DNA of 64,000 nucleotides from Bdellovibrionales bacterium (lineage in GTDB: Bacteria; Pseudomonadota; Alphaproteobacteria; UBA9219), in NCBI GenBank assembly GCA_041649025.1, contig JBAZNY010000002.1, forward strand, positions 70,694 through 134,693, in the 5' to 3' direction. Made by a program: the position numbers. How positions within the stretch are numbered: the stretch's first letter is position 1; the number at the start of each line of letters is the position of its first letter. Shown one piece after another: positions 60,001 to 64,000 of this stretch.

Positions 60001-63000
60001 GAGGGCGATCCGCCATCGGGATGCGGAAATAGTCGGGATGAATTTCGGTAAAGGGCAGGAAGCCATGGCGATTGCCGCCATATTCCACAAACGCCGCTTG
60101 CAGGGACGGCTCGATCCTTATGACCTTCGCCAGATAAATATTGCCTTTGAGTTGTTTTTTGCTGGCGCTCTCGAAGTCGAAATCTTCTAAACGGCGCTCA
60201 TCAACAATTGCTACACGTGTTTCTTCCGGATGCGTCGCATCCACCAACATACGCTTCGTCATTTTAATCTCCCGCCGGAATGTCGCCCTGAGGGTGAGTA
60301 CAAAACCCTCTGGCGCCAGAATCGGCAAATTGGTTGTCTACACTACCGAAGTCCCCAAATTCGGGTCTTTCGGCACTTTGCGCGCCCCCTGCTCACCAAG
60401 AGCAAAACGAGGCCGCTTCTTTAATCTGTCCGTTGACGAGGATAACTCTATGAATTTCCTGCCTTTAACCCCGATGCGCGAACCATTCGCACAAAAAGGG
60501 CCGGAAAGCGAAGGCATGATAGACGGAACGTGGCGGAAGAGCAACACGCAATTTTTACCGTTTATTTTCCAGATAAAGCGTTACGCAATGGTCGCTTAGC
60601 ATGAATTGGCTCGTTTCTGTTATTTAGTTTCAATGTATTCCGATATAATAGCCCGCATAGTTAATTTCATATTGAGGATTTAAATGACCCCGACTGTTGC
60701 AGATCATACCCAGCAACTCTCTGTCCCTGCAGAAATTGGGAAAACCGCAGAAAATCTGTTTGCGGCTGGCATGGGCATTGGAACGGCGCTCGTTAGCGCC
60801 GATGCTTTTATTTCTGCCTCTAATATTATGTTTTCCAATGTTCCCGGCGCGGGGTCTTTGGTCAATCCGCCGAATATTCTTGGACTTTCTGCGGCCAGCC
60901 CGGCGCTTACGGCCGCGGTCGTTATTGTCAGCGTGCCGGTCGGGATGCTTGGACTCGGCGCCTTTCTTGCTTACGGCGCGGGTGCAGAAGCCTGTGTCAG
61001 GAGAGCAGGCGCGGCAATTTTAAATAAAATCAATCCCCTCACAAACGTTCTTTAACAACACGAGAAAAAATGATGTCGGACAATAGCAATACAAATAACA
61101 ACCAAAATGATCACCTGTCATTAGCGGGAAGCATTGCGTGATTAGTTCCGTCAGGGGCGGCTCTTTATGCAGGCGCCAGCATGTTTGGCGGCACTCTTCG
61201 AGCGACTAACGGCAACCTCTTTCAAACGGCCAAACCCGCAACGATCAATCTTGTTACCGATCCTACCCTGTTGCCAAATATTGCGGCTGCTACCTGGAAA
61301 TTCGTCGCAGCGAATCCCGGTGCTGCGCCTATCGTCGGCATCCTTGGCATGGCCATCATGGCCGCCGGTTTTGTTTGCGGAAGCGAATGTGTTGTGATCG
61401 CAAGTGATGCCGTCAATAGGCTGCGTTTAAGAAAAAATGCTGTCCAAACGCTCGGGGCTCATTAAGCGACAATAAAATCTACGCCAGTTTTTTGATCTGC
61501 TTCGCAATCAGGTGAAGGACTTCCTTGACGCGCGTATGGGCGACGGCAAAGAGGGCGTGGACGGGTTTTTTCGTCACTTTCTTGAGCGCGGCGACTTTCT
61601 TTTTAATTTCGGCGGCGTCTAAGGCACTGCATTTGTTGAAGTTAGCTTTTACTGCAAAGCCATTTTTAAAGCGCCCTTTTTATCCACAGCTTATTTCAGA
61701 CCTAATTTTATTTCTCGCGTTGACAAAAAATAGCAACAATGCAATCGAAAGGCGTTTGAATTTATTGATGCGGATTCATTTTTCGAAATGAAACGTTCCT
61801 TATCACTCCAGATCGAGGGAAATGACAATGAAGAAATTATTACTCGCTGTTCTTGCCGTTCTGGCGCTGACGGCTCCCGCACAAGCGGCAACGGTAGGCA
61901 TCGCGTCAGTCGGCGCGCTTGGCACGACCGATACTTATGATTGGGGCCAATTGGGAGACGCTTTCCAAGAGCTTTCAAGCCCACAGAACGTCACATCGAA
62001 CGGCGGGGCAACGGCTGTTGTCAGTTCGGATGGGGCTCTCGCACGGTTTGATCAAGGCATAGAGTGGAGCGGAAATTTTCCGAACGGCGAAAAGCTACTT
62101 TACAGCAGCCCTTACGGCTTTGCTTTCTCGCTTACGAATCCCGTTCAAGGCATTGGTATGCAGATTCAGCCTAATTACTTCGGTTCGTTTGTCGCCGAGA
62201 TTACGGCTTATGATTCAAACGATACGGTTCTCGGAACCTTTATGGAACCCGGTTCTTCCACCTACAATGAAATTGGCGACGGTATTTTTCTCGGTGTTTT
62301 GAGCGATCTGATAAACATCTCGAAAATTGGACTCGTTGTGTACGACCCTGCCGCCTTTCAAGAGGATGGCTCTATAGAACCCGGTTATCTGTTAGATTTT
62401 GCCGTCGGCACTGTTTATACCACCGTGCCCGCCGTGCCCCTTCCGGCTGCCCTGCCCCTGTTTGCGGGCGGATTGCTGGGCTTGGGCTTGTTCAAGCGCA
62501 GGAAGGCGTAAAAAAGCCCGTTTAGGCTTTCTGAAGAAATTCTCCCCGCACGGAAACGAGCGGGGAGTTTTTTTGTCTTTTTGGCGCGGGTCGATGCGGA
62601 CATTATCGCGGCGGCGGAGAGAGATAAAAAAAACAAATTGGATTCCGGATAAATTCGCATTTTTGCAAGAGCAAAAAAGCGAATTTTCCGGAATGACGAA
62701 GGAGGAGTGGAGGCGAATTATTTCTGTTTGCAAAAGAAACGACTCTTGCCGCGCGGACGCGCGGCGCTGGATTCCCGCTTTCGCGGGAATGACGATAGCG
62801 GGGAGCGCGAACGTCGGAATGACGAGACTTTACGACCCGTTAATCAACTTGGTTTTTTGATTTGCTTCGCAATCAGGTGAAGAACTTCCTTCACGCCCGT
62901 ATGGGCGACGGCGGAGATGACGTGGACGGGTTTTTTCGTCACCTTTTTCAGCGCGGCGACTTTCTTTTTAATCTCGGCGGCGTCTAAAGCGTCGCATTTG

Positions 63001-64000
63001 TTGAGGGCAACGATTTCGGCTTTCCGCGAGAGCCCTGCTCCGTAGGCCTTGAGTTCTTTGCGGATAGTTTTGTAATTTGCGACCACGTTTTCTTCCGTGG
63101 CGTCGATCAGGTGCAACAAAACGCGGCAACGCTCGACGTGCCCCAGAAAGCGGTCGCCTAATCCATGCCCATCATGCGCGCCTTCGATAAGGCCGGGAAT
63201 GTCGGCCAGAACGAATGAAACGCTTTGGCGTTTGTCGCCGAGGCTTACGACGCCGAGGTTCGGCGACAATGTCGTGAATGGATAGTCTGCGATTTTCGGC
63301 TTCGCCGCCGTGCAGGCGGCAAGGAACGTCGATTTGCCCGCGTTGGGCATACCGATAAGTCCCGCATCCGCGATGAGTTTCAAACGCAGCCAAACCTCGC
63401 GCTCTTCGCCCGGATAGCCGGGGGTATGGAAACGTGGGGCTTGGTTGGTCGATGTTTTGTAGTGCGCGTTGCCGAAGCCGCCGTCGCCGCCCTTCATGAA
63501 CAGGATGCGCTGGCCCTCGGCGCTGAGATCGGCCAAAACCGTTTCCTTATCCGCGTCAAGAATTTCCGTGCCGACCGGAACTTTGAGAACCAAATCTTTT
63601 CCGCCCAAACCCGAGCGAAGACGCCCTGCTCCGCCGCGCCCGTTGCTGGCCGCATGATGCTGTTGATAGCGATAGTCGATGAGCGTGTTGAGGTTTCCTG
63701 CGGCTTCGAAATAGACGTCGCCGCCCTTGCCGCCGTTGCCGCCGTCGGGTCCTCCGAATTCGATGAATTTCTCGCGATGAAACGCGACGCAGCCCGGGCC
63801 GCCTTTGCCGCTTGCTATGTATATCTTTGCGAGGTCGAGGAATTTCATGATCGATACTCTAAAACTATATCTGTTTTGATGGAAGAGAGTGTCGTTTTGC
63901 TTCCACCCTGTAATAATTGGATTGCGGCAACCGCAAACCCCTCCCCTAACCGCGTCATTACTACTTGCGTCCTTACGACAATCACCCTTTCGCGCCCTCA

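Follow-up and report, generated by a model that had tools for sequence, protein, structure and literature searches.

In the minimal mobile elements of Neisseria, a slot between conserved genes is occupied by cassettes that are exchanged by recombination in the flanks. In Escherichia coli, the insertion of the prophages e14 and phage 21 substitutes about 165 bp at the 3' end of icd. Cis-mobilizable elements (CIMEs) are decayed elements that have kept their att sites and lost their recombination genes; they measure 1.2–13 kb and are found at the 3' ends of rpmG, rpsI, fda and rplL (PMC7563491). Gene ends are also duplicated by the single crossover of a circle that carries a gene-end fragment, as documented for the lacZ end in E. 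coli with duplications of 109–950 bp (PMC3240628), and displacement by homology-facilitated illegitimate recombination (HFIR), leaving orphaned 3' ends, has been proposed for type VI secretion system (T6SS) effector and Rhs loci (PMC5361080). The locus described here is the 3' end of obg, encoding the GTPase ObgE, in a 64-kb stretch of contig JBAZNY010000002.1 (positions 70,694 to 134,693; assembly GCA_041649025.1), which was analysed over its whole length and is referred to as the window. Two copies of the obg 3' end, named A and B, bracket a block that carries a single gene for a secreted VPLPA-CTERM protein (the cargo gene) and that is missing in syntenic relatives.

The two copies form an ungapped direct repeat of 153 nt (61487–61639 and 62852–63004), in which 137 of the 153 positions are identical (89.5%; E 2.5e-55 by blastn within the window). 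The repeat period is 1365 bp and the block between the copies comprises 1212 bp (61640–62851). No third copy was found in the 64 kb, either by blastn with a word size of 7 or with an nhmmer profile built from the obg 3' ends of the clade. Copy B is part of an intact obg, the product of which matches the NCBIfam ObgE equivalog NF008956 over its full length with 458.5 bits (cutoff 300) and is identical to the protein record P0001. It corresponds to the 51 complete codons preceding the final two of the gene, while these last two codons and the stop, CCA AGT TGA (62844–62852), are not those found in copy A or in the nearest relatives. In the reading frame of obg, copy A is open over codons 282–334 and has its stop at the same position as obg; the clade profile matches it from 61640 to 61481 up to the profile end (E 1.6e-38). 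Copy A possesses neither a start codon nor upstream obg sequence and is therefore a fragment, and its interpretation as a gene or paralogue is ruled out on the same grounds. The homology to obg ends abruptly at the junction 61639/61640, as seen by both blastn and the nhmmer profile, and the homology between A and B ends equally abruptly 8 nt ahead of the obg stop.

The order of events at this locus can be deduced from the relatives with an Obg identity of 85–90%, which come from metagenomes. In L087 (Obg 90%), only about 36 nt separate obg from the conserved leader of rne, and in L089–L092 (Obg 85%), which carry a convergent 114-aa gene 14 nt past the obg stop, the distance is 499 nt; in the window, it amounts to 2295 nt. 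L089–L092 share the synteny of the window, with glycosyltransferase genes, rplU, rpmA and obg upstream and rne, an ABC-F gene and an SMC gene downstream. The rne leader of the window shares 81–84% identity with the rne upstream sequences of L087 and L091, and a search of the locus including this leader against Rfam gave no match. L093 (Obg 90%) contains a convergent 122-aa gene past its obg stop. The spacing between the obg stop and the small convergent gene is 13 nt for copy A in the window, 13 nt in L093 and 14 nt in L091. Spacing and synteny together show that copy A occupies the ancestral context and that the 1365-bp unit ahead of it is the addition.

These comparisons bear out part of an earlier note on this DNA, which had described a 1.2-kb insertion at the obg 3' end bracketed by a duplicated gene end. 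The repeat it reported is real, as the ungapped alignment demonstrates, although its coordinates were 4–6 nt too long at one end and the identity of 88% has to be corrected to 89.5%. Its designation of the second copy as the genuine obg end and of the first as a stranded fragment agrees with the full-length ObgE match of the one and the missing start codon of the other. The insertion itself is supported by L087 and L089–L092, in which obg lies so close to the rne leader that the block is lacking, and obg is intact in the window. All the contents assigned to the block could also be located, i.e., a gene for a protein with signal peptide and PEP-CTERM sequence (61828–62511), a terminator (62537–62578) and a cluster of palindromes (62640–62830).

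A different arrangement is present in L181 and L182 (Obg 86%), the former of which originates from the same sample as the window contig. Here, 91 nt separate obg from a convergent VPLPA-CTERM gene (L181:3196–3745 and L182:3182–3678), and both contigs end inside this gene. Over 32 nt, its sorting signal shares 84% identity with that of the window cargo gene, and the terminator stem (CTCCCCG) is similar; the N-terminal domain of the protein differs, and this lineage is not the donor. The combination of obg with a convergent VPLPA-CTERM gene is, as far as these contigs can tell, ordinary chromosomal DNA in the clade. The window looks like a join, at obg codon 281/282, of an obg–VPLPA-CTERM arrangement with an obg–small gene–rne arrangement.

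The explanation favoured here, to which we assign an about even chance of being correct, is a homology-anchored, imperfect replacement by which a module consisting of an obg 3' end and a convergent VPLPA-CTERM gene was imported from a close relative; we infer both the existence of this donor and the recombination route. The ancestor would have contained obg, a 13-nt spacing, the convergent small gene and then rne, and the incoming DNA would have come from a close relative whose obg directly adjoined a convergent VPLPA-CTERM gene. One end of the incoming DNA would have entered by homologous recombination inside obg, and the other end, which would have lain about 180 nt ahead of the cargo gene, by an illegitimate join at obg codon 281/282. 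Alternatively, the fragment may have formed a circle that was inserted through a single Campbell-type crossover in the 153-nt homology. In either case, obg would end in the imported copy B, followed by repetitive extragenic palindrome (REP)-like units, the terminator and the cargo gene, and the resident copy A would have been moved 1365 bp downstream. In this best reading of the locus, no dedicated integrase is required. The homology that such incoming DNA needs is present, since copy B is homologous to copy A, and an excess of third-position differences between them is compatible with two coding lineages.

This route resembles HFIR and Campbell-type integration in that gene-end homology anchors foreign DNA and a segment is duplicated on both sides, with no dedicated recombinase involved. 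The lacZ case is experimental, whereas the obg case is read from a natural genome. The 3'-end displacement at Rhs, contact-dependent inhibition (CDI) and T6SS loci offers a further parallel, because there, too, a new 3' end together with a downstream gene displaces the resident end, which is kept as an orphan. In contrast to these systems, obg encodes an essential housekeeping GTPase, its old and new ends encode nearly the same peptide, and no toxin/immunity logic is involved.

The differences between the two copies were polarised with L087, L093 and L091 as outgroups. Copies A and B differ at 16 positions, and ten of these fall on third codon positions (binomial p = 0.016). Those changes that can be assigned to copy A affect first and second codon positions, at residues that do not vary among the relatives compared: the G4 motif NKxD has lost its aspartate (GAC to AGT, converting NKCD to NKCS), V-I-S in the motif ahead of AVAH is changed to A-L-F (ISA to LFA), and a conserved glycine is replaced by arginine. 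Of the differences that can be attributed to copy B within the 153 nt, every one is a synonymous change at a third position. Copy A is thus the displaced original obg end, which has no function and is decaying without indels, and copy B is under selection. The mild third-position excess suggests that part of the divergence between A and B arose while both copies were still coding. The tail of copy A, CTG GCG TAG (CTGGCGTAG), matches that of L093, CCG GCC TAG (CCGGCCTAG), at 7/9 positions, and the CCA AGT TGA tail of copy B matches it at 3/9.

Several observations weigh against an import from a close relative. No donor lineage has been sampled, and no Obg with an identity between 90% and 100% is on record. 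Sliding-window identity along obg gave no mosaic signal with five relatives, which are too distant to be informative. The third-position excess is based on just 16 differences, and dN/dS, estimated by hand at about 0.2, is not significantly below the expectation for an in-situ duplication. Moreover, the identity between A and B is 89%, compared with 73–79% to the other clade members examined, which makes the two copies mutual closest relatives; on that point, an in-situ duplication therefore fits equally well.

Such an in-situ duplication, considered unlikely here, would have copied 153 bp in this lineage when foreign DNA was inserted 8 nt ahead of the obg stop in the course of repair or replication, with the insert supplying the last two codons and the stop. 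Besides the sister relationship of A and B and the missing donor, the point at which their homology stops and the poorer match of the copy B tail to L093 are in line with this scenario. Yet, an Obg ending in PS* is also found in the clade proteins P0009, P0019 and P0034, and the tail of copy B can therefore be explained without a junction. The excess of third-position differences also speaks against a duplication in situ, and so does the lack of indels, which a fragment without function would have had to escape while diverging by about 10%. Furthermore, we know of no established bacterial mechanism for a 153-bp target duplication, and neither terminal inverted repeats nor a transposase were found. 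A transposon or insertion sequence with target-site duplication was rejected, as no transposase was found, the ends of the insert have only about 6 nt in common in inverted orientation and 153 bp is too long; target-site duplications known to us are far shorter.

A second stranded obg fragment was detected in L093 (WOOD18-1...scaffold_465608), where it is located at 1910–1987 behind the convergent 122-aa gene (68% over 28 aa by tblastn; nhmmer E 4e-11), with a repeat period of 594 bp. This fragment covers profile positions 143–221, compared with 79–238 in the window, and the cargo is also different, as expected of non-site-specific joins. The two loci thus represent independent events in sister lineages that produced the same architecture: obg is intact and is followed by a convergent cargo gene together with the region upstream of it, and then by a stranded obg end. 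Each locus contains only one orphan obg end according to nhmmer searches of the window and the relatives. Older obg fragments behind the 94-aa and 123-aa genes of the window were not found by blastn (word size 7) or nhmmer, so there is no sign of a cassette array. In a far-reaching reading, considered very unlikely here, the obg 3' end would serve as attachment site for a family of integrase-less single-gene cassettes of 0.6–1.4 kb that are moved in trans by a recombinase from another part of the genome. If true, each cassette would carry its own obg end and one convergent gene for an envelope or surface protein, and the obg–rne spacer would be an integron-like array on an essential gene.

The earlier note had attributed the duplication to an integrative element of the kind that targets the ends of genes, and this reading is supported only in part. 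In its most plausible form, which is possible but rather improbable, the block would be either a CIME-like islet that has decayed and lost its integrase or a cassette that was mobilised in trans; it would have targeted the obg 3' end and brought its own version of this end, which kept obg intact, with copies B and A as attL and attR. An accessory gene does lie between direct repeats, the target gene has been regenerated and the insert is missing in relatives; CIMEs as small as 1.2 kb are known at the 3' ends of protein genes (PMC7563491), and the stranded fragment in L093 could be taken for a recurrent att site. The boundaries in L093 differ, however, and no obvious motif is common to the flanks of both events. 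No recombinase, whether integrase or transposase, was present among the window ORFs of at least 150 aa (Pfam and NCBIfam) or in the gene tables within ±10 kb of obg on the likely source contig. At 130 other loci, the first open reading frame (ORF) downstream of obg is mostly proB and integrase is not a recurrent Pfam family, so at most a single locus could carry one. An obg 3' duplicate was absent from about 165 further alphaproteobacterial obg loci, which leaves the window lineage and L093 among about 170 in all, in a survey with flanks of 6–8 kb that could miss larger elements. The genome and metagenome scans for Obg mostly returned distant relatives (60–67% identity), with L001, L099 and L100 being moderately close. 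Finally, the imported arrangement resembles the ordinary chromosome of L181, so that the block has the look of chromosomal DNA from a relative and not of a mobile element. No report of integration at the obg end turned up in a literature search.

The similarity to CIMEs is nevertheless close, as direct repeats of a target-gene 3' end flank a small accessory block that lacks an integrase. In contrast to CIMEs, no related element bearing an integrase was found at the obg loci surveyed, the repeat is long (153 nt) and 10% diverged, and the second event has different boundaries. Likewise, e14 and phage 21 supply icd with a substitute 3' end and strand the original end at the far att site, but they are prophages with integrases, whereas the obg block has 1.2 kb, one cargo gene and no recombinase that could be found. 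The integrative mechanism is regarded as less likely than a recombinational displacement of the obg 3' end.

The adjacency of copy A and the cargo gene is found in three assemblies with 99.97–100% identity, i.e., in the window and its likely source, the ENA contig k141_2397243, in JGI 3300037067 (L084) and in Logan SRR8542065 (L085). Both the L084 and the L085 contig contain the region from rne through the small genes and copy A to the cargo gene. The ENA contig (123 kb) encodes identical proteins in the same order and joins the cargo gene to obg across the REP cluster. The other contigs break within this cluster, L084 at 62805, L085 at 62669 and the Logan obg contig L082 at 62769, and the link between cargo gene and obg is therefore carried by the 123-kb ENA contig. 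In addition, the cluster records of the Obg and cargo proteins both give a contig of 185,791 bp as the longest, which suggests that this 186-kb NCBI contig also contains the link. The breaks between cargo gene and obg are what could be expected if a chimeric join or a mis-assembled repeat had produced an apparent duplication. The probability of such an artefact is close to negligible: copies A and B differ at 16 positions and are therefore not a collapsed or duplicated read artefact, copy A lies beside the cargo gene in all three assemblies, obg and rne adjoin in relatives too, and the two cluster records share their longest contig.

The features of the locus are compiled in the table.

Table. 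Coordinates of the features at the obg–rne locus; positions refer to the window.
Feature	Position	Strand	Remarks
obg (GTPase ObgE)	62844–63848	−	334 aa, intact; full-length NCBIfam NF008956 equivalog
Copy B	62852–63004	−	working obg 3' end, codons 282–332
REP-like palindromic cluster	62640–62830	.	units ending GGAATGACGA, between terminator and obg stop
Terminator-like hairpin	62537–62578	+	CTCCCCGC...GCGGGGAG followed by T7, 3' of the cargo gene; inverted repeat I2
Cargo gene	61828–62511	+	227-aa secreted VPLPA-CTERM (PEP-CTERM variant) protein, convergent with obg; alternative start at 61822
AT-rich region upstream of the cargo gene	61640–61827	+	36% GC; left edge is the copy A junction
Inserted block	61640–62851	.	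1212 bp; missing in syntenic relatives L087 and L089–L092; GC 49.5%
Copy A	61479–61640	−	stranded obg 3' fragment, codons 282–334 plus TAG stop; repeat proper 61487–61639
Small hydrophobic protein gene	61181–61465	+	94 aa; convergent with copy A, stops 13 nt apart
Small hydrophobic protein gene	60684–61055	+	123 aa; second occupant of the variable obg–rne spacer
rne leader	60251–60548	−	conserved; far edge of the variable spacer
rne (RNase E/G)	57617–60250	−	Pfam RNase_E_G; conserved downstream neighbour

The cargo protein matches TIGR03370 with its residues 205–228 at 25.4 bits, slightly above the cutoff of 25.35. Its signal peptide, as read in the sequence, is MKKLLLAVLAVLALTAPAQA and its C-terminus is VPLPAALPLFAGGLLGLGLFKRRKA. 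The GC content at third codon positions is 54.8%, compared with 63–68% in the neighbouring core genes, and a promoter scan of 61640–61827 revealed no consensus sigma-70 promoter. The hairpin behind the gene was missed by the terminator scanner because its loop exceeds 8 nt. A word-indexed search had returned three homologues, and the resulting view of the cargo protein as a near-orphan was overturned by exhaustive HMMER searches, which identified 628 cluster representatives at E<=1e-10, the nearest about 50% identical. The protein thus belongs to a large family of uncharacterised PEP-CTERM proteins of about 220–240 aa, distant members of which occur in groups of three within a polysaccharide-export locus of the type that accompanies exosortase systems. 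The structural model shows a beta-sandwich with moderate confidence (pLDDT 64), and a fold search returned only weak matches to DUF4465/CBM-like beta-sandwiches (TM about 0.45). No function is assigned to the protein, because the fold matches are weak and the confidence of the model is moderate. PEP-CTERM sorted proteins go together with a cognate exosortase. Pfam and NCBIfam searches of the window ORFs detected neither an exosortase nor a second PEP-CTERM protein in the 64 kb, and from what is established for PEP-CTERM systems it would be reasonable to expect an exosortase elsewhere in the genome, as the earlier note did.

The palindromic cluster between terminator and obg contains three exact GGAATGACGA sites and additional hairpins. 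Near-copies are present at 54457–54509 (96% over 53 nt), 54618–54692 (83%) and 1989–2025, the first two within a cluster that spans 54457–54700. The units are thus short imperfect palindromes in intergenic clusters that are dispersed in the window, in the manner of REP sequences and bacterial interspersed mosaic elements (BIMEs). They end in GGAATGAC(G/A)A and sit in intergenic clusters at which assemblies break. The unit ATTCCCGCTTTCGCGGGAAT fits the form ATTCCC-N8-GGGAAT, which we take to be that of the neisserial dRS3 repeats. No copies of the units were found in the loci of the relatives examined, and the window contains no transposase of the REP-associated tyrosine transposase (RAYT) type.

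The slot convergent to obg is occupied by small hydrophobic proteins of 94–123 aa in three lineages, namely in the window, in L091 (9020–9364) and in L093 (1427–1795). The 94-aa and 123-aa proteins of the window have no Pfam or NCBIfam match, and pairwise BLASTP comparisons of the small proteins (94, 123, 122 and 114 aa) gave E values of 0.1–0.3, by which homology is not demonstrable. They constitute either a fast-evolving family or unrelated occupants of the slot. The obg–rne slot resembles the minimal mobile elements of Neisseria in holding different cassettes in different lineages, and differs from them in that a partial duplication of one flank betrays an imperfect exchange. The C-terminus of the 123-aa protein (60990–61055; AYGAGAEACVRRAGAAILNKINPL) is 46% identical to Obg over 24 aa, on the opposite strand and with an E value of 0.2–0.6 in a tiny search; this resemblance is probably due to chance.

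On the other side of rne, a TacA-like antitoxin and a GNAT toxin are encoded ahead of the ABC-F gene, by the gene at 56704–57195 and an 88-aa gene immediately upstream of it (about 57209–57475). L089–L092 lack this toxin–antitoxin pair and have the ABC-F gene 12 nt after rne; the pair is a second small insertion in the obg–rne neighbourhood. Further away, the window encodes a protein with [FeFe]-hydrogenase-like, histidine kinase and receiver domains, which looks like a sensory hydrogenase-type regulator, and has HydF and radical-SAM genes nearby (36014–38965, 40443–41699, 20494–21594 and 24808–26835). Two dCTP-deaminase-like paralogues (18222–18773 and 19874–20419) flank a gene, within 18222–20419, for a 363-aa protein that contains only the N-terminal part of the class II alanyl-tRNA-synthetase domain; a full alaS is present at 6540–9278. 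The metagenome-assembled genomes (MAGs) carrying P0001, P0004 and P0121 are labelled 'Bdellovibrionales bacterium' at NCBI. The gene order rplU-rpmA-obg and the best-matching relatives of Obg suggest the Alphaproteobacteria instead, so this label may be wrong.

The reading of the locus as an insertion is right, and the event itself is a real but fairly ordinary trace of gene acquisition, by which a larger question is neither opened nor settled. The locus also calls for caution, as the duplication of a gene end around an insert is, taken alone, no evidence for an integrase-driven mobile element. It provides a natural example of how an accessory gene for a surface protein can be added beside an essential gene without damaging it, by means of a replacement gene end, and the old obg end that was left behind constitutes a datable fossil. 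Together, the two independent events in sister lineages mark the obg–rne spacer as a local hot spot of gene gain in a poorly known alphaproteobacterial clade.

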